Source: a virus (taxonomy: Duplodnaviria; Caudoviricetes). From it: a stretch of DNA of 64,000 nucleotides. Both the position numbers and the translations under genes were made by a program. The DNA is taken from IMG/VR virus record IMGVR_UViG_3300014208_000024, positions 1 to 64,000 of that record; one strand, written 5' to 3'. This document shows positions 4,098 through 54,370 of this stretch, piece after piece. The notes beneath the pieces were generated by a model. It did no database searches. It was not told where the DNA came from and worked only from the letters and a program-made list of their open reading frames with translations. Every line of letters starts with the position of its first letter. Within the stretch, counting starts at the first letter, position 1.

Positions 4098-4193
4098 TTA
4101 ACGACATGACACACCCAAGGTCTTTTGTACTTGTTGCACAAAAAACACAACCTGAAAGCGGCTTTGGCATGTTATGTTAATTAAATTTTTCAT
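4098..4193 (-). CDS. Leader peptide MKNLINITCQSRFQVVFFVQQVQKTLGVSCR
   Basis: 31-aa uORF with 5 Gln, 5 Val, 3 Phe, 2 Arg; overlaps antiterminator. Confidence 0.8.
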   Translation of the reverse strand: MKNLINITCQSRFQVVFFVQQVQKTLGVSCR

Positions 4194-6261: not shown

Positions 6262-6666
6262 TTAAGTAATTTTTTTTATAATGAAATCTACACAAGCGTT
6301 GTACATAGCTTTATGAGAAACTTCCAAAACAACATTTTTGTAAATTTCTTTTTCTGTTTCTTCTTTTTTTAACTCACAAGTCTCTTTGTGGCTAACCACA
6401 TTTACATACCCATCTGGTTTCGATGTATTATGCCACTCTTGAATGAAAACTTCTGTTTCATCATCTTTCATTGAAATAATAGTTCTCATTTTATATCCTT
6501 CTCTGGGATTATGGTTTATTTTGTGTATAACCCATCTTAAAATCTCTGAACCAATCACTGGATCATGAGGAGCAAATAGTTTATAATCCAATTCTTTTTC
6601 GTCATAACCCATGAATTTAAAAAGAGTTTTGTTGTATTTTTTATAATTTTCTAGATAATTTTCCAT
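6262..6666 (-). CDS. Hypothetical protein
   Basis: Long ORF in operon. Confidence 0.7.
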   Translation of the reverse strand: MENYLENYKKYNKTLFKFMGYDEKELDYKLFAPHDPVIGSEILRWVIHKINHNPREGYKMRTIISMKDDETEVFIQEWHNTSKPDGYVNVVSHKETCELKKEETEKEIYKNVVLEVSHKAMYNACVDFIIKKIT

Positions 6667-21465: not shown

Positions 21466-21667
21466 GTTTAAAATGTTTTTGTTTTAAAAAAACCCCCGCA
21501 TCTCGTATACGGGGGAACTTTTGTTTTTCTAATCGAACTTCCATCTTGGACGCATGGGCTGGCCTATTCTAAACTTATCTGAAGGGCATCCGAGAATCCC
21601 AGGAATTGCTTACAACCACGAAGCTGAATCTACCAATCTATACGCAAACTTTTTAAAAAAGTTACAT

Positions 21668-23802: not shown

Positions 23803-23807
23803 ATTTG

Positions 23808-23891
23808 AGCACATGGAGGGATTTGAACCCCCGACTCTTTCGAGATAACAGTTTTGCAGACTGATGGCTTAGACCACTCACCCACATGTGC
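23808..23891 (-). tRNA. tRNA-Cys(GCA) with long variable arm
   Basis: GCACATG/CATGTGC, U73, loop CTGCAAA, CTC-GAAA-GAG V arm. Confidence 0.82.
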
Positions 23892-23990: not shown

Positions 23991-24131
23991 AATTTAGGGG
24001 AAAAGCAAAAAGAGTGTTGAAGATTTCTCTTCGGAGGATTTGAACCTCATTCCCTTTCGGGAGATTGATTTTTGGTCAATTGCGTAAACCAGTTTCTCCA
24101 CGATGTAACTCTTTTAATGGCCACCTAAATT
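23991..24131 (-). ncRNA. Cassette A: permuted Leu-like tRNA body with acceptor stem capped by a short purine loop
   Basis: AATTTAGG/CCTAAATT and AAAAGAGT/ACTCTTTT flank stems, TGGCCA, TACATC^G; cargo 24019-24101. Confidence 0.75.
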
Positions 24132-24224: not shown

Positions 24225-24305
24225 TTATGCAAAATCATTCCAGGTCAACTTGCTTTGGGAGCAATTTGATAGTAAGAGGCATAAACACAAAGATAAAGTT
24301 TTCAT
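24225..24305 (-). CDS. Leader peptide MKTLSLCLCLLLSNCSQSKLTWNDFA
   Basis: 7 Leu and 3 Cys in 26 aa, upstream of Leu and Cys tRNAs. Confidence 0.82.
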   Translation of the reverse strand: MKTLSLCLCLLLSNCSQSKLTWNDFA

Positions 24306-45408: not shown

Positions 45409-46311
45409 TTATCTTATAATATTTAATTCCTTTTCAGTCCATACCTCAAATGGTATGTTATTTTTTTTACAATATTTTTTAACAGCTTTAATTTTTTCTT
45501 TATTATTCCATCTATTTAACAATCTTTTTGGCTTAACTTCAACTATTTTTTTTAGTTCTTCTTTGTAAAAAATTTCAAAATCTATAATTGTACTTCTTTT
45601 TCCATTCCTATATTTTATATTGTATGGCTCGTAATTATAATAAAGAACATTATCATCTTTTTCTAATATTTCCATAGCTATTAACTCATAAGAACTTCTG
45701 TATTTTATTTCTTTTTTATTTTTATTACTATAATAAATTCCACCTTTATATTTTTTATGTGATGGAGAAATCCCAAACATTCCATTGCTTTTTCCGCTAT
45801 TTTTTCCTTTTATAGAATTTGATATTTTCTTTTTCACATCCTCGCTTTGTGATGCACATTTTTTAGAACAATAAATGTTTTCATGCTTATTAACTTCTTT
45901 TCCACAAAATTTACATCTTGGTTTTTCTTTTATATTTTTTTTCTTACCTGCTTCAATACGCTCTATTAAAAATCCAAACGCACCATTTTCTCTAATGCGT
46001 TTTTTTATAGAATCTCCTATGTTTTTTTTCGTTTTTTCTGATTGAATTCTTTTGTTTGCACAACTTCTAGAACAAAACATAGAATATTTTTTTTTCTCAA
46101 AATCTGTTTTTTTTAAAATAATCTCATATTTTTTTCCACATCTCAAACATCCAAACTCATACTCTAATCTTTCTATTTTTCTACTATTAGATGCTTTTTG
46201 TATCATGTTTTTTTTGTTTGGGTTTTTTTTACAATTAATTATATGACCACCAAGTTGTTGTTGCTTGTCATATTTTATTAATTGTCCACAATATTTACAT
46301 TTTTTTTCCAT
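45409..46311 (-). CDS. Zinc-finger/NUMOD plus TnsA-like homing endonuclease
   Basis: KYRSSYE...IIDFEI...VEVKP. Confidence 0.8.
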   Translation of the reverse strand: MEKKCKYCGQLIKYDKQQQLGGHIINCKKNPNKKNMIQKASNSRKIERLEYEFGCLRCGKKYEIILKKTDFEKKKYSMFCSRSCANKRIQSEKTKKNIGDSIKKRIRENGAFGFLIERIEAGKKKNIKEKPRCKFCGKEVNKHENIYCSKKCASQSEDVKKKISNSIKGKNSGKSNGMFGISPSHKKYKGGIYYSNKNKKEIKYRSSYELIAMEILEKDDNVLYYNYEPYNIKYRNGKRSTIIDFEIFYKEELKKIVEVKPKRLLNRWNNKEKIKAVKKYCKKNNIPFEVWTEKELNIIR

Positions 46312-46365
46312 TTTTTTGTATTTATTTTACTATAAATATCAGCAAAAAATAAAAATTGAACTCTG

Positions 46366-46437
46366 AGCGGTATACTGGATTTAAACCAGCGACCTTCACA
46401 TTGGCAATGTGACATTCTATCACTGAACTAATACCGC
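46366..46437 (-). tRNA. tRNA-Gly(GCC)
   Basis: GCGGTAT/ATACCGC, U73, TCACA-TTGCCAA-TGTGA. Confidence 0.83.
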
Positions 46438-46440
46438 ATA

Positions 46441-46607
46441 AAATTAGGGAAATTTCGAACTAAGCATTTTTCTTTTTCTGCCCCATTTAACCACTCTGGA
46501 ACCCCCCCGAATTACTCCTTATTTGTCGAGGGGGATGGATTCGAACCACCGAAGGCTTACGCCAGCAGATTCCTTATCGAAGTAACTTAATTTGTTACCA
46601 CTAATTT
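46441..46607 (-). tRNA. Cassette E: circularly permuted type II (Tyr-like body) tRNA with AGG anticodon
   Basis: 3' half 46526-46578, 5' half 46479-46509; join GCA|GA restores GCAGA/TCTGC; loop TAAGGAA; 16-nt linker. Confidence 0.78.
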
Positions 46608-47387
46608 ATATTTTTTATTCCAATTTTCTATTTTGTTTTTTAAATCATCTAATGAAATAGAACATTTTTTATTTTTACTTGAATTATTTGAATGAACCAT
46701 TAATTTGCAATTTGCTGGATGAGAAATAATATTTGAATCAATTTTTTGTTTAAAACCTTCCGAAATTGAAAACATGTGATCTCTACTAATTCCATTTAAG
46801 TTATTCCCTTTATTCTTTGCACAATACCATCCAAATTTTTTAATCAACTCAAAGTCAAATTCTTCTACGAAATCTTTTAGATTAAAATTAAATCGACACT
46901 CTGATTTATATATATTAAATTCAGTCATCTTTTTTTTATCAAAAATTTTTCTACAATTTATCCCACAAAATTTATTTTTTCTTTTTTTAAATGGCAAAAT
47001 AGCATTACACTCTAAACAAAAATTTGGATTTTCATAATATTTGTCAATACCATTTTTTTTAATATTAGCATTTTTAATGTTTTCTTTTGCTTTGTCACTA
47101 AAAACAACTTTTCTGCCAGTATTTTTCTTATTGTTAAATGATGTAGAACAACTTAAAGAACAAAAAGTATTAAACCTTTTTTCGTATGAAATTAAATTAC
47201 CACAATGTTTACATTTTTTAATATCAATTTTAGGTTTATGAAATTCATTATAACAAGTTAAGGAACAAAAATGTTTTCTTCCCATTTTTTCACTTCTTTT
47301 AAATTCTGTTTTTGTTTTTTCAAACTCATTTTTACAATTTTCGCAAATTATTAAAATTGTTTTTCTATTATTCTTAAAAATTTTCAT
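46587..47387 (-). CDS. Zinc-finger plus HNH-like homing endonuclease
   Basis: FCSLxC repeats; GISRDHMFSI...HPANC; start re-chosen at MKIFKNN. Confidence 0.78.
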   Translation of the reverse strand: MKIFKNNRKTILIICENCKNEFEKTKTEFKRSEKMGRKHFCSLTCYNEFHKPKIDIKKCKHCGNLISYEKRFNTFCSLSCSTSFNNKKNTGRKVVFSDKAKENIKNANIKKNGIDKYYENPNFCLECNAILPFKKRKNKFCGINCRKIFDKKKMTEFNIYKSECRFNFNLKDFVEEFDFELIKKFGWYCAKNKGNNLNGISRDHMFSISEGFKQKIDSNIISHPANCKLMVHSNNSSKNKKCSISLDDLKNKIENWNKKYKLVVTN

Positions 47388-47459
47388 ACTTTTATTTTTC
47401 TTATAAATATTAAAAAAAAATAAAAGTGGAGTTTTTTTGAGTCGAACTTGTATGCTTAG

Positions 47460-47533
47460 TGGAAGTGAAGGGTTTCGAACCCTCATACCTTATGCTTGCA
47501 AAGCATCTGCTCAGCCAATTGAGCTACACCCCC
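47460..47533 (-). tRNA. tRNA-Ala(TGC)
   Basis: GGGGGTG/CACTTCC with G3:U70; loop TTTGCAA. Confidence 0.9.
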
Positions 47534-47615
47534 AGATTTCCTATTAACTCTTCCATTCACCCTAAAGTGGGTGGGTTTACAGAACTTCGGAAAGACTTTC
47601 GTCTTGTTCAATTAG

Positions 47616-47689
<74 letters not shown>

Positions 47690-47691
47690 AA

Positions 47692-47770
47692 ATGATAGTC
47701 TTTCCCATCTGTCACCCTTAGATGTGATTATTAAAAATAATCAGTGTATTGCGGGTTGTCTACACCATCC
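47692..47770 (-). ncRNA. Candidate pseudoknotted small RNA
   Basis: GATGGT/ACTATC, TGATTATT/AATAATCA, CATCT-AAGGGTGAC-AGATG whose loop GGGT can pair with upstream ACCC. Confidence 0.4.
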
Positions 47771-47778
47771 TTTTTCAA

Positions 47779-47929
47779 AAAACAGGGAAAATTTATAAGA
47801 GTTTGTTTTACGTGCTCTAACCGACTGAGCTATCCCGCCATTTTCCTTTTATTTGTGGCGGGAGCAGGATTCGAACCTACGGCGACGGCATTATGATTGC
47901 GAAGTAACTCTCATTGTTGCCACTGTTTT
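47779..47929 (-). tRNA. Cassette G: circularly permuted tRNA-Met(CAT)
   Basis: 3' half 47856-47900, 5' half 47811-47839; join CG|GCA; GGCGGGA/TCCCGCC; 16-nt linker. Confidence 0.87.
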
Positions 47930-47944
47930 ATCTTAAATATGTTA

Positions 47945-48098
47945 AAAATTAGGGAATTCTTCGCAGAATCTGTTTTTAAGCGCTCTAACCAACTGAGCTA
48001 TCCCCGCATTATTTTTTATTTAGAGCGGGGAACAGGATTCGAACCTATGGCCTCTGTCTTGGAAGGACGATGAAATTCTACATTTTGCCACTAATTTT
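47945..48098 (-). tRNA. Cassette F: circularly permuted tRNA-Gly(TCC)
   Basis: 3' half 48024-48068, 5' half 47979-48007; join CT|GTC restores CTGTC/GACAG; U73; 16-nt linker. Confidence 0.88.
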
Positions 48099-48102
48099 AT
48101 TG

Positions 48103-48177
48103 TCGGGGTAACTGGATTTGAACCAGCGAACACTTGCATCCCATGCAAGCCCATATAGCCATCTGTGGAACACCCCG
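48103..48177 (-). tRNA. tRNA-Pro(GGG)
   Basis: CGGGGTG/TACCCCG, CTTGC-ATGGGAT-GCAAG. Confidence 0.82.
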
Positions 48178-48245
48178 TAAGGTGCGGAATTTAAAGTCGT
48201 GGAGTCACAATGCTCAACGGCACAAACCTTCCGCTGTTTGTTTTG

Positions 48246-48320
48246 TCTGGGTAAAGGGATTCGAACCCCCGAACACGTGCTTCCAAAGCACGCCCGTATA
48301 GCCATCTGCGGAACACCCAG
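48246..48320 (-). tRNA. tRNA-Pro(TGG)
   Basis: CTGGGTG/TACCCAG, CGTGC-TTTGGAA-GCACG. Confidence 0.87.
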
Positions 48321-48426
48321 AAATAAAAGAGAGAACATCTTATGAGATGCTGTCCTAACCATCACCGTTCACGTTTCAGGTCAGTAACTCAAGTCTTGTG
48401 AACCTCCCAAGACCCTTTTCTTTTTG

Positions 48427-48501
48427 TCGGGTAAGCAGGATTCGAACCTGCGAACATCTGTCTCCGAAACAGACCCATATAGCCATCTGTGGAACTACCC
48501 G
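48427..48501 (-). tRNA. tRNA-Pro(CGG)
   Basis: CGGGTAG/TTACCCG, TCTGT-TTCGGAG-ACAGA. Confidence 0.87.
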
Positions 48502-48521
48502 AATTTTAATTTCATTTTCAC

Positions 48522-48610
48522 TGGTAGCGGGTGAGGGACTCGAACCCCCGCTTCCCTTTTGGAGAAGTCCAGCTTATGAGACTGGCAAGATACCACTTCT
48601 CTAACCCGCA
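48522..48610 (-). tRNA. tRNA-Met(CAT) with 1:72 mismatch, long V arm and encoded CCA
   Basis: TGCGGGT/ACCCGCT, CCAGT-CTCATAA-GCTGG. Confidence 0.8.
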
Positions 48611-48617
48611 ATATTTG

Positions 48618-48699
48618 TCGAAAGGGAGGGAGTTGAACCCCCATAGCCGAAGGCGACGGTTTTACAGACCGCTGATTTAGCCGATTTACCATCCTTTCG
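48618..48699 (-). tRNA. tRNA-Tyr(GTA)
   Basis: CGAAAGG/CCTTTCG, GCGGT-CTGTAAA-ACCGT, long V arm. Confidence 0.88.
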
Positions 48700-48703
48700 A
48701 AAA

Positions 48704-48799
48704 CTTTGGCTCATGGGTCAGTTACTATCCCATTTTTATTTAACGCTATTCCAAGGCGACTAACTTGTGTCCAACAACGCATCCACTATGCAGCCAAAG
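48704..48799 (-). ncRNA. Candidate structured RNA
   Basis: CTTTGGCT/AGCCAAAG closure, GCAT-AGTGG-ATGC, ATGGG/CCCAT hairpin whose loop TAACT can pair with AGTTA. Confidence 0.42.
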
Positions 48800-48817
48800 G
48801 GAGATTTTTAAAATTTG

Positions 48818-48902
48818 TGAGAGTAGAAGGATTCGAACCTCCAACGCCCCGAAGGGCAACAGGGTTACAGCCTGTCAGACATCCTGGTTGTCTAATACTC
48901 CC
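48818..48902 (-). tRNA. tRNA-Tyr(GTA)
   Basis: GGGAGTA/TACTCTC, ACAGG-CTGTAAC-CCTGT. Confidence 0.88.
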
Positions 48903-48906
48903 ATTT

Positions 48907-49058
48907 AAATCAGGGTAAAAGCGAATAAGCTTTTTTGTTTTTGAATTTTTCCCCATAGTTTAAAATTTAATTGGTGGGGAAAGCAGGATTCGAACCTACA
49001 ATGTTTAGTTTTACAGACTATTTTCTTCCGAAGTAACTCATTCTGTTGCCACTGATTT
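48907..49058 (-). tRNA. Cassette H: circularly permuted tRNA-Tyr(GTA)-like RNA with minimal D-arm
   Basis: 3' part 48972-49029 with encoded CCA, 5' part 48943-48954; GGGGAAA/TTTCCCC; flanks AAATCAG/CTGATTT and GAATGAGT/GCTTATTC. Confidence 0.78.
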
Positions 49059-49059
49059 G

Positions 49060-49131
49060 TGGAGGATAACGATACCGATTCGTTGGTCTGTTGCTTGCAA
49101 AACAACCGCTTTACCATTAAGCTAAGCCCCC
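49060..49131 (-). tRNA. tRNA-Ala(TGC) with non-canonical T-loop
   Basis: GGGGGCT/ATCCTCC (G3:U70), loop TTTGCAA, T-arm AACGA-ATCGGTA-TCGTT. Confidence 0.72.
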
Positions 49132-49811
49132 AATTTATAATAAGAGAAAATGTGATTTTTATGAGATTTATTAACACCTCTACAAACCTTAGAAACACAA
49201 TTCCAATCAAACCCATCTTCTATAACTTGCCTTCCAAAATTATAAATTTTTATCAAATTATTTTCTAAATTATAACAAAAAACTTTTTTACAATTCTTAC
49301 TATTTATTCCACTATTTTTTTCTTTTGTTTTTTCACTCCATTTTAATCCAACTCTTTTAGCAGACATTTTTTCTTTACTTTCTTTAGAATGATTTTTTCC
49401 ATAAAATCCATTTTTATCTCCAAGACAACTTGTTTTTCTTGTTTTTGACATCTTTATTTTTGATTCTTCCGAGTGTTTGAAAATTCCTTTTTTACCTTTG
49501 TTCCAAGGAACAACACTGAATGAACCATCTCCACCATTTGTCATATTTGTAAGCTCAAACCCCCAAGTTTTAATTTGAGAAATCCAATATTTTTCCCAAA
49601 AATCACAACTTAACTCATCAGTTTCTTCTATGATAAAAAGTTCTGGTAACAATCCATTTTTTTTTAATTTTTTAACCCAAGCAGTTTTTTTTGTATTTTT
49701 ACTTTCATTTAAATGGTCTCTAAATCTTCTTTCTACCCTATATGTTTTTCCAACATATTTTATACTTTTATTTCTTGGGTCAGAAAGTAAATAAATATAA
49801 ACTTTTTTCAT
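49122..49811 (-). CDS. GIY-YIG homing endonuclease with NUMOD3/NUMOD1 repeats
   Basis: VYIYLL...KYVGKT...RFRDH; HSEESKIKMS repeats. Confidence 0.9.
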   Translation of the reverse strand: MKKVYIYLLSDPRNKSIKYVGKTYRVERRFRDHLNESKNTKKTAWVKKLKKNGLLPELFIIEETDELSCDFWEKYWISQIKTWGFELTNMTNGGDGSFSVVPWNKGKKGIFKHSEESKIKMSKTRKTSCLGDKNGFYGKNHSKESKEKMSAKRVGLKWSEKTKEKNSGINSKNCKKVFCYNLENNLIKIYNFGRQVIEDGFDWNCVSKVCRGVNKSHKNHIFSYYKLGA

Positions 49812-49846
49812 ACTTTTTTATTATAAATATAATAAAAAAAAATGAA

Positions 49847-50206
49847 TTATGGATTAATTAATGGATTTATTTTTTGTTTTGTTAATTTATATACCCTATT
49901 ATTAAAATCTTCTAATAAAGATTTGGGTATTTTTATTTTTTTATCTTCAAATTGTTTAAGTATTTCATACTTAGAAAAACACCCTTCAACAATACCCTCT
50001 GACCACATATTAATATGCAACCCCCAAGATTTTTTTCCCATAATTACAGTTTTCAAAATGTTTGGGTGACAACTTTTAAGATTATTAATTTTTATTTCAC
50101 CATTTTCAAATTTTCTGAATCCAAATTTTCCATCATCAGAATCCAGATCAAATTCCACTTTAACATCTGAACCGCAGAAAGTAAGTATTCCACATCTATA
50201 AGACAT
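49847..50206 (-). CDS. Hypothetical protein
   Basis: ORF. Confidence 0.65.
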   Translation of the reverse strand: MSYRCGILTFCGSDVKVEFDLDSDDGKFGFRKFENGEIKINNLKSCHPNILKTVIMGKKSWGLHINMWSEGIVEGCFSKYEILKQFEDKKIKIPKSLLEDFNNRVYKLTKQKINPLINP

Positions 50207-50437
50207 TAAAAAAAACGTGAAGATTTCGTTAAACTTTTCAGAATACTTTTGTAATCTTTTATGATTTCTTGTACCAGAGATTTGTTTTTTTTCTTCAATT
50301 TTTCTTAACCTCTCTTTAATTGATTCGCTTTTCGCATGGCTGTTCCCTCCAAAGTTTTAATTATTAATATGATAAAGTTGATTTTGCTCAATATCATTGT
50401 TAGCTTTATCGTTCAAAAACTATGATATTATATTGTA

Positions 50438-50508
50438 AATCAGGGAATAGTTACCGAGGGAGTTTTTTGATTTGCAGTCGAAGTATCCCTACTGATTGCC
50501 ACTGACTT
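50438..50508 (-). ncRNA. Cassette I: minimal cassette whose cargo is only a Cys anticodon stem-loop
   Basis: AGTCAG/CTGATT, AGGGA/TCCCT, TGGCAA, TACTTC^G, cargo GA-CTGCAAA-TC, TATTCC. Confidence 0.72.
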
Positions 50509-50510
50509 TG

Positions 50511-50583
50511 AGCGGGTAAAGAGGTTCAAACTCTCGACTTTCAGATTGGAAATCTGACGCTCTATCAGCTGAGCTATACCCGC
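50511..50583 (-). tRNA. tRNA-Gly(TCC)
   Basis: GCGGGTA/TACCCGC, U73, TCAGA-TTTCCAA-TCTGA. Confidence 0.83.
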
Positions 50584-50688
50584 ATTATTTTAGTTTATAA
50601 AAAATAATATAATTTAAATTTTTTTTCACAATTTGTTAAAGAAAATAGATTTTCTAAAATTTTGTGATATTTATATGAAAAATATTAT

Positions 50689-51369
50689 ATGACACCACTT
50701 TATACACAAGAAGAATTTGACAACGCTAAAGGTTGCGACAAATTGCCATGTAAATGTAAATATTGTAAAGAAACATTCTTTAGATATAAGTATATAATTA
50801 AAGCAGCATTAAACCCAAAAAACAAGCAAACTAATGATTATTGTTCAAGAAATTGTCAATATCAATCTCAGTTTAAGCATGAAACTATAAGATGTGACAA
50901 TTGCAATATTGAAATTAAAAAATTAATTTCTACTACAAAAAGACATAAAAATCATTTTTGTTCGCACTCATGTTCTACTAAATATTTTAACGCTCACAAA
51001 ACAACTGGAATTAGACGATCTAAATTAGAAATATGGCTTGAATCACAACTCACTTTTCTTTATCCAAGTCTTGAAATTCATTATAATAAAAAGGATGCCA
51101 TTGGATCAGAATTAGATATATATGTACCCTCTTTAAAAATTGCATTCGAATTAAATGGAATATTCCATTATGAGCCAATTTATGGTAATAATAAATTAGA
51201 TCAAATAAAAAATAATGATTCAAGAAAATATAAATCTTGTATTGATTTAAACATATCTTTGTGTATAATAGATTCATCTCAATTAAAATATTTTAAAGAG
51301 AAAAATTGTAAAAAATATTTAGATATTATTATTAATATTATAAACAACACAATGAATACTGGACAATAA
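50689..51369 (+). CDS. Zinc-finger plus PD-(D/E)XK/Vsr-like homing endonuclease
   Basis: ELDIYVPSLKIAFELNGIFHY. Confidence 0.8.
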   Translation: MTPLYTQEEFDNAKGCDKLPCKCKYCKETFFRYKYIIKAALNPKNKQTNDYCSRNCQYQSQFKHETIRCDNCNIEIKKLISTTKRHKNHFCSHSCSTKYFNAHKTTGIRRSKLEIWLESQLTFLYPSLEIHYNKKDAIGSELDIYVPSLKIAFELNGIFHYEPIYGNNKLDQIKNNDSRKYKSCIDLNISLCIIDSSQLKYFKEKNCKKYLDIIINIINNTMNTGQ

Positions 51370-51426
51370 TAACCAGCATTCATTATGTGTTTTAAATTCA
51401 CCAACATGTCAAAGACCATTATACTG

Positions 51427-51498
51427 CGGAATGTGTGGGATTCGAACCCCTCCTTCGCCGTGACGGGGCGATACTACTACCATTATACGACACACTCC
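51427..51498 (-). tRNA. tRNA-Asp(GTC), weak T-stem
   Basis: GGAGTGT/ACATTCC, G73, TCGCC-CCGTCAC-GGCGA. Confidence 0.75.
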
Positions 51499-51530
51499 AA
51501 TTTTCATTTATTTATAAAGAACGTATTAAA

Positions 51531-51569
51531 ACAAAAAACCCGAATCTTTTTTTGGGATTCGGGTTGTTT
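51531..51569 (-). terminator. Attenuator terminator of the Asp/Gly/Ala/Tyr/Met/Pro tRNA array
   Basis: CCCGAATC-CCAAAAAAA-GATTCGGG-TTTTTT; leader GGGACGGGTATGTTT can pair with AAACAACCCGAATCCC. Confidence 0.8.
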
Positions 51570-51599
51570 GTTCACCTTTTAAGTTTTATAAAAACTTCA

Positions 51600-51713
51600 T
51601 TAAGGTTTTGAGTTAAACATACCCGTCCCACATCCATAATCAGCATCCGCTGCACATGGATAACCGCCCATTGGGGAAGTTTCTGGTTGACGATATGTAA
51701 AATTTTGTTTCAC
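51600..51713 (-). CDS. Leader peptide (GTG start) MKQNFTYRQPETSPMGGYPCAADADYGCGTGMFNSKP
   Basis: 4 Pro, 5 Gly, 3 Ala, 3 Tyr, 2 Asp, 2 internal Met, 2 Cys. Confidence 0.8.
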   Translation of the reverse strand: MKQNFTYRQPETSPMGGYPCAADADYGCGTGMFNSKP

Positions 51714-51769
51714 CTTTATTATGTTTTTATATTATTAAATATCTCAAAAAAAATTGTTTTCACAGATTC

Positions 51770-51796
51770 ATACGCAAAGTTACAAAAAAAGTTACA
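51770..51796 (-). promoter_or_regulatory. TGTAAC-N16-CGTAT promoter with overlapping TAACTTTG
   Basis: Recurring motif. Confidence 0.7.
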
Positions 51797-51862
51797 TAAA
51801 AAACAAGTTTTTTTCAAAGTTTTTTTAAAATATTTTACAACTTGTTGATTATTAAACTATTA

Positions 51863-52321
51863 TTATTTTGCTTTATCATCTAATTTTTGAAACATTCTTA
51901 AATCTTTTTGAAAAGAAACTGGAAAAGAGTTGTGTTTTTGAATCATTTGATCTATTTTTTCCTGGGTAATTGGATCTCCATTTGATGAATTGATTCCTTT
52001 TTTAAGCTTTATTGCATCTTTTTCCATTCTTCTTCTTATATAATGATATCTAACCAGGTTTTTTGTATAATCAGATATAAATGGCCAGTTTTTAATTATT
52101 TGATAAGACTTTTCTTCGTGATTTGTAAAGGAATAATTATATCCATCTTTTTTTAATGTAGCAACAAATGGTTTTCCTATATCATGAAGCAGCGCTGCAG
52201 TAGCAAATCTTTTTTTAGAAGAAAATAGTGAATACCAAAAAACTATTAATGTATGTACCAGCACAGAATGTTTGTGATGTTTATTTTGTCTTAAAAATAA
52301 TGTGATAATAAAATGTTTCAC
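51863..52321 (-). CDS. HD-domain protein
   Basis: HHKHSVLVHT...LLHDIGKP...HEEKS. Confidence 0.82.
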   Translation of the reverse strand: MKHFIITLFLRQNKHHKHSVLVHTLIVFWYSLFSSKKRFATAALLHDIGKPFVATLKKDGYNYSFTNHEEKSYQIIKNWPFISDYTKNLVRYHYIRRRMEKDAIKLKKGINSSNGDPITQEKIDQMIQKHNSFPVSFQKDLRMFQKLDDKAK

Positions 52322-52851
52322 TATGAAAGTTGTTTCAATATTTTATCTACTATAACTTTTGTATTTTCTGGCACTCCGAGTATTTCTTCGTATACAATAT
52401 TATAAGAATCAAGCATGTCTTTAATTTCTTTATCTAAAGATTTGGCACCTTCTTCTGTTTGAAGTCTTCCCTTTGTATGATATGGTTTGGCTCTTTTTAT
52501 GAAAAAATTCATATTTTCATATTTGTGATGTTCATTAATAATGACTGTTCTGAAATGTTCATCATTTTTCACATCATATATAATAGAATTTAGCAAAGGG
52601 GAGTCGGTCACAATAACATCAACTTTTCCTTTTAACCTAAACATTCTGTGTTGTTGTTTTCCAAAAACATACAATTGGTTTTCTAAGACGTTGTTTGAAC
52701 CTTCCCAAACTCTGTCTTTAGCATATTCCAAAGCCATTTCACATTCAACACCTTCCCATTTTAATTGTGCAAATATACTAGCACAAAAAGTACTTTTACC
52801 AGCTCCAGGGCCAGCAAACAAATTGATTACGATAGTTTTTTTAGTTTCCAT
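52321..52851 (-). CDS. P-loop NTPase (NadR/AAA_28-like)
   Basis: NLFAGPGAGKST, IVTDSPL. Confidence 0.82.
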   Translation of the reverse strand: METKKTIVINLFAGPGAGKSTFCASIFAQLKWEGVECEMALEYAKDRVWEGSNNVLENQLYVFGKQQHRMFRLKGKVDVIVTDSPLLNSIIYDVKNDEHFRTVIINEHHKYENMNFFIKRAKPYHTKGRLQTEEGAKSLDKEIKDMLDSYNIVYEEILGVPENTKVIVDKILKQLS

Positions 52852-52909
52852 ATTTTAAATTTAATAGTTTCAAAAAATAAAAAAGGGGAAAAATTTTCCA
52901 CATTTTTTT

Positions 52910-54370
52910 TTACACTGTTCCTACTTCTTGTAAATATTTTTCATCAAATTTTGAAAAATCATCCTGTTCCCCTTCAAATCCAACAGATTTTCTTTTTGAC
53001 ATTGAAGATTGTTCAGATGCGTATTTGGATATGTTTCGAATGTCTTCTTTCATTCTTTTTTTAACTGACTGTATAAGTTCCACACTAACATCTTCTCCTA
53101 CGCTAACAGCAAATGATGCAGTTGCTTGTGCAAGTTCTTTTATTTCAGCCCCAGACATTCCATTTATATGCTGATATAATTCTTCTCTTAATTTTTTCCC
53201 AATTTTGGTTGTTGGTCGATTTTTATCATTAAATAGAATTTCTTCAAAGTAAATTTCGGCACATTTAATTGCATATCCTCCAGTGAGAACTCCAAATTCA
53301 ACAATTCTATCAACTCTACCAGGTCTTTTAAGAATTCTTGGTTCAATTCTGTCTGGATGATTTGTTGTCATTATTATATATGAACCAAGAAGATTTTTTG
53401 GTTGATCAACTCCATCTAAAAAGTTTAACAAAGCAGAATTTGCATTTGAAAGAGTTGATTCGGCATCTTCAAGAACAACAAGTGTACTAACTTTGTGTGT
53501 AGCACATTTTACTAAATGCTGTGCCACGTCTACAATATTCATTGAGAACACTACACATTTGTCTGTTGAGAATTTTTTAGAAATTTTTACAGCCAAACTT
53601 GTTTTCCCTGTTCCAGGAGGTCCAACTAACAGAGATTTTCTTACTCCAGACATTCCAAATCTTGTAAACAATGGAACATTGTTATAGTAATAATTAATAT
53701 CTTGCAAAAGGACTTCTGTTGATGGGTGTACTATTGGAGTTTCTTGTAAGTCTTCAAGTTTTTTATATTCAATTCCACCTATTCCGTTGTTATAAATTCT
53801 GAATATCCCATTTTTTGGTTTTGCATTCTTTTTCTTTTCTTGCTTAATCATTTTCAAAAAATTAAGCCATATTTTTTTTTCGGCAGCATACATTCCTTCA
53901 ACAGATCTGGTCTTTCCTCCTCCACTTATCCATTTTGCATAATACATATATGTACCATCAGAAAATATTACCTTAAACAAACCAGTTGTATCTGAAACAC
54001 TGATGCTATATTCCTTTTTTTTCACCAATGAAACACCAAATGAATAATTTGTTATTAAATCTGATTGTATCCTTTCAATTTCAACAATATGAAAAGATTT
54101 TCTACCATATCTTTTGGCTTCATATTTCAATTTATTTAACATTGAAATATCATATGTGTCAGAATATTCTACAATAACAAATTCACATATTTCTTTTAAC
54201 AACTCTGGGTTTTTTAAGTTATCTTTCCACAACTCTTCAACTTTTGTTTCAATGTTTTGTTTTTTTGCAATAGTTAAATTTTTTTCTTTTGAATAAAGAT
54301 AATCTCTTATCTTATTTTTTCTGTATCTAATTAACAGTTCTTTGTAGATAACTTCCCTTAATGTTCCCAT
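52910..54370 (-). CDS. AAA+ ATPase
   Basis: GPPGTGKT, VLEDAE, TTNHPDRIEPRILKRPGRVD. Confidence 0.9.
   Translation of the reverse strand: MGTLREVIYKELLIRYRKNKIRDYLYSKEKNLTIAKKQNIETKVEELWKDNLKNPELLKEICEFVIVEYSDTYDISMLNKLKYEAKRYGRKSFHIVEIERIQSDLITNYSFGVSLVKKKEYSISVSDTTGLFKVIFSDGTYMYYAKWISGGGKTRSVEGMYAAEKKIWLNFLKMIKQEKKKNAKPKNGIFRIYNNGIGGIEYKKLEDLQETPIVHPSTEVLLQDINYYYNNVPLFTRFGMSGVRKSLLVGPPGTGKTSLAVKISKKFSTDKCVVFSMNIVDVAQHLVKCATHKVSTLVVLEDAESTLSNANSALLNFLDGVDQPKNLLGSYIIMTTNHPDRIEPRILKRPGRVDRIVEFGVLTGGYAIKCAEIYFEEILFNDKNRPTTKIGKKLREELYQHINGMSGAEIKELAQATASFAVSVGEDVSVELIQSVKKRMKEDIRNISKYASEQSSMSKRKSVGFEGEQDDFSKFDEKYLQEVGTV

Follow-up and report, generated by a model that had tools for sequence, protein, structure and literature searches.

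The 64,000 nucleotides of the window analysed here form the start of a virus record of 372,283 bp, which has a GC content of 28.7%, is complete according to CheckV, and is present in public groundwater metagenome runs. On the minus strand of the window, flanked by a conserved promoter block and by a strong terminator of the intrinsic type, just upstream of a gene for tRNA-Asp, lies an open reading frame (ORF) of 37 codons plus a stop codon (51713..51600) that begins with GTG and is the only open frame in an island of about 50% GC. A sequence-only reading of this DNA had proposed a GTG-initiated leader peptide of 37 amino acids at this locus; the ORF was recovered with the sequence quoted there, and the span that had been assigned to the element (51531-51796) runs from the promoter-like block to the U-tract of the terminator. 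The features of the locus, together with the related leaders found elsewhere in the genome, are collected in Table 1.

Table 1 Features of the leader cassette, of the tRNA array downstream of it, and of the paralogous leaders (positions in the window unless stated otherwise).
Feature	Position	Strand	Sequence or remark
Promoter-like block	51771..51813	-	-33-like TTG 51806-51804; -7-like TAACTTTG 51782-51775
5'-UTR box	51735..51747	-	TTGAGATATTTAA; common to the paralogous cassettes and relatives
Leader ORF	51600..51713	-	Putative control region, codons 14-27, PMGGYPCAADADYG
Segment 1	51689..51698	-	ACAUAUCGUC, codons 6-8; pairs with segment 2 (predicted protector helix)
Central hairpin	51632..51661	-	Inside the 1:2 domain; partly conserved
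Segment 2	51615..51630	-	UGGGACGGGUAUGUUU, codons 28-33; predicted antiterminator strand
Small AU-rich hairpin	51581..51597	-	Just after the stop codon
Intrinsic terminator	51528..51569	-	5' arm AACCCGAAUC 51565-51556 plus flanks; 3' arm 51546-51537; U-tract UUUUUUGUUUU
BoxA-like element	51510..51523	-	CGTTCTTTATAAAT
tRNA-Asp(GUC)	51426..51498	-	First putatively regulated gene
Second boxA-like element	51401..51417	-	GGTCTTTGACATGTTGG
tRNA array	45035..51498	-	Putatively controlled
Homing-endonuclease-type ORFs	45409-46311, 49122-49811, 46587-47486	-	
Homing-endonuclease-type ORF	50689-51369	+	
Paralogous leader	4193..4098		MKNLINITCQSRFQVVFFVQQVQKTLGVSCR; then Gln, Phe, Arg, Val tRNAs
Paralogous leader	24305..24225		MKTLSLCLCLLLSNCSQSKLTWNDFA; then Leu, Cys tRNAs
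Paralogous leader	31734..31657		MMTTVIIKKSISIKIKKLNEWDIFA; then Lys, Ile tRNAs
Paralogous leader	35305..35216		MRTSNIHINTNTHKHNTTCLSGCDMSIMS; then Asn, His, Thr tRNAs
Sixth leader	genome 72949..72863, outside the window		Then Ser, Arg, Trp tRNAs

The promoter-like block has a TTG/TAnnTTTG arrangement of the Bacteroidota type. This block stands in front of four leader cassettes, of the GOLLD region and of further RNA genes of the phage, and it is conserved in relatives. From 45.0 to 51.8 kb, the minus strand has no match to TTG-N17-23-TAnnTTTG other than the leader promoter. A Shine-Dalgarno sequence was found for only 2 of the 203 long ORFs of the phage, and the leader ORF likewise lacks one; an A-rich upstream region is common to the leader and the real genes of the phage. 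The rarity of Shine-Dalgarno sequences, together with the type of promoter, points to a Bacteroidota-type host. Beyond the terminator lies a boxA-like element that is putatively functional; its motif, GTTCTTTAAAATATTG, also occurs 3' of the terminators of the other cassettes and of the leaderless GOLLD promoter, and it resembles the boxA of the E. coli rrnB operon, TGCTCTTTAACAATTTA (PMC2176067). In one relative (L012) the second boxA-like motif follows the terminator directly.

The GOLLD RNA itself (41517-42326, minus strand; Rfam score 226 bits) is part of a longer GC-rich stretch (41518-42260) and carries the promoter block and the boxA-like motif of the tRNA cassettes without a leader ORF or a terminator. 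Immediately upstream of its promoter is a match to SRP RNA (42370-42453, minus strand) that scores 42.3 bits against a gathering score of 40. In the region 21490-21666 (minus strand), the promoter block precedes about 160 nt of GC-rich sequence that is not tRNA and has a terminator of its own; the region is a candidate small RNA.

All tRNA genes of the window (35 called by ARAGORN and a few detected by Rfam only) lie on the minus strand, in arrays. The array downstream of the leader begins with tRNAs for Asp, Gly(UCC), Ala, Tyr, Tyr, Met, Pro(CGG), Pro(UGG) and Pro(GGG); there follow a tRNA-like gene that carries an insert and then tRNAs for Pro(UGG), Ala, Gly(GCC) and Met. A 229-kb relative has an array with identical order and identities, and in another relative (L021) the same six identities lie within 1.9 kb behind one leader. 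In every relative whose contig extends that far, the first tRNA after the leader is tRNA-Asp, with tRNAs of the same identities behind it. About six ORFs are interspersed among the tRNA genes in the window, two of them with homing-endonuclease domains; the types represented are GIY-YIG plus NUMOD3, TnsA-like N plus NUMOD3, and zinc-ribbon proteins. In L021 the array is compact, and the ORFs of the window look as though they were inserted later.

Two further observations concern individual genes of this array. A contig from a second groundwater metagenome joins position 51421 to position 51524: tRNA-Asp is missing from the interval that separates the terminator from the second boxA-like motif, just as in L012. 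This copy of tRNA-Asp is thus variably present; contigs of two DNA runs otherwise yielded only identical fragments and pieces of paralogous promoters. The tRNA match at 47856-48007 (minus strand, 31 bits) is about 85 nucleotides longer than usual, the excess lying in its anticodon and variable region, and a low-stringency ARAGORN search gave Ala(CGC) with an intron as its guess.

Relatives of the leader were reached through homologs of the neighbouring HD-domain protein, which led to the same cassette at 79-83% nucleotide identity, and through a profile of three peptides, which retrieved 15 clusters of 36-53 amino acids among 1.8 billion representative proteins; four further loci were taken from these clusters. 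The peptides of the seven relatives scored are 51-83% identical to the leader of the window. Searches at the DNA level added little: the element had no match by blastn in the GenBank phage collection, nor among viral contigs scanned for exact 26-mers, a degenerate two-block pattern found only one viral contig, already known, and the records of four more distant relatives contained no homolog of the leader. Synteny around the AAA_28 protein led only to relatives that were too distant.

Across the nine related loci the frame is open in every case, every insertion or deletion comprises whole codons, and the homologous start codon is ATG in seven loci and GTG in two. Ala24 is encoded by GCT, GCA, GCC or GCG and Gly27 by GGA, GGG, GGC or GGT, that is, by all four synonyms each, and Gly16 and Pro14 each by three synonymous codons. 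No variation occurs at D25, Y26 and G27 among 18 peptides of the family, and conservation is 90% or higher at T6, G16 and A24. The synonymous variation, together with the preserved frame, argues for selection on the decoded product and not on RNA shape alone, and we infer that the leader is translated in vivo.

Our first idea had been that the GC island is a structured non-coding RNA and that the match to the array's amino acids is a product of GC-rich codons, an idea rejected in view of the coding-type conservation in relatives. In its general form, namely that the locus specifies a small RNA or a riboswitch-like leader in which the open frame is incidental, such an explanation draws on the contrast in GC content between the island and the rest of the genome, on a fold that is better than that of shuffled sequences (z = -4.9), and on a block of invariant nucleotides. 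We nevertheless regard it as extremely improbable, given the retention of frame and start, the whole-codon indels and the full sets of synonyms just described. Moreover, a synonymous TAT>TAC change breaks one pair of the central hairpin in two relatives (L014 and L015). The element matches no family of Rfam 15 at the gathering score, and a search of 51400-51900 at E < 10 returned nothing besides tRNA and noise, and no T-box or specifier structure.

The composition of the leader mirrors that of the array that follows it. Of the 36 residues after the start, 19 are Asp, Gly, Ala, Tyr, Met or Pro, as compared with 24.7% of residues in the phage proteome (binomial p = 2.8e-4), and only 0.33% of 36-residue windows of the proteome reach this number. 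The match is concentrated in codons 14-27, where 13 of 14 residues belong to these six. By standard wobble rules, applied by reading and not by computation, every codon that the leader uses for Asp, Gly, Tyr, Ala, Pro or Met is readable by the anticodons of the array; all four Gly codons are covered, with the UCC and GCC anticodons of tRNA-Gly both present. The gene at 49060-49131 is assigned as an Ala tRNA because it has the anticodon UGC and a G3:U70 pair, and its ortholog in a relative is also called Ala.

The sequence-only reading had listed Cys alongside these six amino acids as an identity shared by leader and array. The six were borne out and Cys was not, since neither ARAGORN nor Rfam finds a tRNA-Cys in the array. 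The Cys codons of the leader thus have no matching tRNA there, both Cys positions vary freely in the peptide family, and the only tRNA-Cys of the window (23807-23891) lies in the Leu array.

The 3' part of the ORF is complementary to the terminator. The terminator has a GC-rich stem of 10 bp, ends 30 nt before tRNA-Asp, and is present in all eight relatives whose contigs reach it. Segment 2 (51630-51615) is predicted to pair with AAACAACCCGAAUCCC (51569-51554), which contains the 5' arm of the terminator, at -18.6 kcal/mol, as against a mean of -9.0 for shuffled sequences; none of 1000 shuffles reached the observed value, and pairing of the leader ORF with the terminators of the other leaders gave -8.7 to -10.7. 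Because the pairing contains a bulge of 2 nt, no perfect complement of the ORF to the terminator arm exceeds 5 nt; 1375 of 2000 shuffles reach this length, which makes it uninformative for this leader. In five close relatives segment 2 is invariant at the nucleotide level, wobble positions included, so that the codons GGG ACG GGT ATG TTT are frozen there, as this pairing would explain. Two relatives, L020 and L019, have changed terminators, and in each the relative's own ORF pairs best with its terminator (-18.5 and -17.0, respectively), at the same codon positions, so that the 2:3 pairing is kept through compensatory changes. In L021 no significant 2:3 complementarity was found (-10.1 kcal/mol, reached by 181 of 500 shuffles).

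Segment 2 is also predicted to pair with segment 1, in a helix that occurs in the minimum-free-energy fold of all nine homologous leaders and that would account for the nucleotide-invariant ACA TAT among codons 6-8. The layout is thus that of the classical 1:2, 2:3 and 3:4 helices. Just past the stop codon, the pairing of the AU-rich hairpin is kept in L015 through a G-C/C-G swap; a function of this hairpin as a pause or spacer element is possible.

When the transcript is cut before segment 4, the 5' arm of the terminator is about 80% paired upstream with the A site of the ribosome at any of codons 1-25, and 30-50% paired from codon 27 on, a drop that marks Asp25-Tyr26 as the last codons at which a stall would permit antitermination. 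When the complete terminator is included, a stall at codons 16-22 still leaves the terminator favoured at equilibrium (P = 0.8-1.0), so the switch would have to be kinetic. The trp leader is also kinetic in this sense, its 3:4 helix being more stable than 2:3. For the truncated transcript without a ribosome the antiterminator is predicted 78% of the time, which suggests that at equilibrium the protector helix is weak. The distance from segment 2 to the stop codon is 12-18 nt, which means that a ribosome at the stop codon would cover segment 2 only partly.

The cassette is not unique within the genome, as five other arrays are headed by the same design with unrelated peptides (Table 1). The six leaders are enriched 2.1- to 4.5-fold for the residues of their own arrays; the best match of each leader is its own array, and among the 720 possible pairings of leaders with arrays the true one is the single best. 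In a 357-kb phage whose record has terminal repeats (L005), a Tyr/Lys-rich ORF of 30 codons and a terminator (6473-6625) lie directly before a Lys/Tyr array. The design thus extends to a more distant phage, with protein identity as low as about 55% for the product of a neighbouring gene.

These paralogous cassettes bear directly on the possibility that the ORF is a stand-alone gene for a small protein of 37 amino acids, with its own promoter and terminator, which adjoins the tRNA genes by chance or for co-expression. The peptide family does have an invariant ADADYG motif, which seems to be conserved more strongly than a mere run of control codons would need, the promoter block and the strong terminator are the ORF's own, and gene callers have predicted the peptide in many metagenomes. 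A small-protein gene would nonetheless leave unexplained why five cassettes with unrelated peptides each mirror their own array, why the ORF is complementary to its own terminator and the two change jointly, and why wobble positions are frozen in codons 29-33 when other conserved codons show synonymous variation. We consider this explanation very unlikely.

Several other features of the tRNA regions, and of the genes next to the cassette, are recorded here as observations in their own right. A suppressor-type tRNA with the anticodon UUA (33634-33706, minus strand) lies inside the Thr/His/Asn array, and two with the anticodon CUA lie beyond the window (genome 74251-74324 and 75335-75409); ORFs look intact under the standard bacterial code despite these tRNAs. 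Permuted tRNA-like pieces occur, all on the minus strand, at 46456-46601, at 34950-35126 and at about 24030-24125. In each of them the 3' half comes first, comprising T-arm and acceptor strand, and a linker joins it to a 5' half that has the matching acceptor strand; the pieces are flanked by GTGGCAA..GAGTTACTTCG and TTTTCCCC(G/T)AAATTTT. One of them gives a weak match to the model of the permuted cyanobacterial tmRNA, and the pieces may be permuted or split tRNA genes. Upstream of the cassette (51863-54370, minus strand) are genes for an AAA ATPase of 486 amino acids, an AAA_28 P-loop protein of 176 amino acids and an HD-domain protein of 152 amino acids, a conserved set that is syntenic with the leader in most relatives and that could possibly have a role in tRNA or nucleotide metabolism.

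The earlier proposal that a leader sensing several amino acids acts here as an attenuator has held up, in that all of its features that can be tested at the sequence level are present: a short conserved ORF, cognate control codons, an intrinsic terminator, a protector helix, and an antiterminator overlapping the ORF in its 3' part. In our view the cassette is likely to be a leader-peptide transcription attenuator, operated by the ribosome, that heads a phage operon of Asp, Gly, Ala, Tyr, Met and Pro tRNAs. Transcription would begin at the promoter block (about 51775), and the 37-codon leader would be translated. Fast decoding of codons 14-27 would carry the ribosome onto segment 2, leaving segments 3 and 4 to pair and transcription to terminate at 51537-51528, before tRNA-Asp. 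If charged tRNA for one of these amino acids were scarce, the ribosome would stall in the control region and open the 1:2 helix, and segment 2 would stay free; free segment 2 would take up the emerging 5' arm of the terminator, no terminator would form, and polymerase would read through, passing the boxA-like element into tRNA-Asp and probably into the rest of the array. More tRNA would then mean faster decoding and an operon that is switched off, that is, negative feedback. Both the direction of the switch and its dynamics, as given here, are deduced from the predicted pairings.

We further infer that the attenuator governs the whole array, 6.5 kb in length between 45.0 and 51.5 kb. Alternatively, the attenuator could be real and gate only tRNA-Asp or the first few genes, with the distal tRNAs transcribed from internal promoters that may have come with the inserted endonuclease genes. 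The size of the array, its roughly six ORFs and a gene on the opposite strand (50689-51369) speak for such an arrangement, as do boxA-like motifs after tRNA-Asp and before tRNA-Gly, which could mark separate units, and the many weak promoter-like sites that a generic sigma-70 scan reports. Yet these sites are not in excess (49 matches as against 38.5 +/- 7.2 in shuffled sequence), and the minus strand inside the array has no second TTG-N17-23-TAnnTTTG and only one weak terminator-like site. Moreover, Pro, Met, Tyr and Ala are among the residues that the leader conserves, and the tRNAs for these four all lie distally; the grouping of all six identities behind one leader in L021 is likewise at odds with separate distal promoters. 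We therefore judge internal promoters to be unlikely as the source of the distal tRNAs. The single promoter match, the scarcity of terminators, the boxA-like motifs and the compact array of L021 favour one transcript.

To our knowledge, how phages regulate their tRNA genes is essentially unknown, and phage tRNAs are usually viewed either as constitutive helpers for codon usage or as spares against tRNA-cleaving defences. A search of the literature did not find leader-peptide control of tRNA genes described. If the attenuator reading is correct, the cassette would be, as far as the literature was searched, the first case of trp-type attenuation acting on tRNA genes, and it would constitute a self-tuning supply circuit for the translation apparatus whose multivalent sensor, responding to six amino acids, would be more complex than thrL or ilvL. 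Such cassettes could also provide compact natural parts for codon- or tRNA-responsive switches, and the rule that leader composition equals array content could be used to find operon boundaries in giant phage genomes. More speculatively, and with the odds in our view against it, the attenuators may together form a modular 'tRNA audit', in which each leader reports on one group of host tRNAs and the phage turns on the set that is limiting. The limitation could stem from host anticodon nucleases, from other tRNA-targeting defences, or from degradation of host tRNAs by the phage itself. An audit of this kind would be the sensing arm of a counter-defence and would be widespread in giant phages of hosts that, like the Bacteroidota-type ones, do without Shine-Dalgarno sequences.

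The closest known counterparts are the leader peptides of enterobacterial amino-acid operons, which include trpL, hisL, leuL and pheL as well as thrL, which senses Thr and Ile codons, and ilvL, which senses Ile, Leu and Val codons. Like thrL and ilvL, the phage leader is a short ORF with control codons, has predicted 1:2, 2:3 and 3:4 helices whose segment 2 falls within the 3' part of the reading frame, is followed by an intrinsic terminator before the first regulated gene, and would sense more than one amino acid. Unlike them, it is encoded by a phage, lacks a Shine-Dalgarno sequence, has a promoter of the Bacteroidota type and a boxA-like element after its terminator, and would sense six amino acids with one leader. 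Furthermore, the genes that it would regulate are tRNA genes and not genes for biosynthetic enzymes, so that the feedback would act on the supply of tRNA rather than on that of amino acids. By mechanism the phage leader thus appears to belong with the leader-peptide attenuators, and it falls outside the class of biosynthetic operons, given the tRNAs and homing-endonuclease-type ORFs downstream.

The pheM leader of the E. coli pheST operon controls a synthetase operon by attenuation and senses charged cognate tRNA through the speed of the ribosome. Both pheM and the phage leader would thus place leader-peptide attenuation on components of the translation apparatus, with the differences that pheM is chromosomal and bacterial, is concerned with one amino acid, and has a synthetase as its product, whereas the products in the phage are tRNAs. 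T-box riboswitches bind uncharged tRNA directly and need no translation. Their logic is similar, in that the availability of tRNA decides between terminator and antiterminator ahead of translation-related genes, but the sensor in the phage would be a translated ORF, with no T-box or specifier structure. A last parallel concerns the boxA/Nus system of rRNA operons: the phage motif GTTCTTTA(A/T)AA resembles the rrnB boxA TGCTCTTTAACAA (PMC2176067), and in both cases the motif stands at the start of a long operon of structured RNAs, with the difference that in the phage it belongs to a tRNA operon and lies downstream of the putative attenuator.
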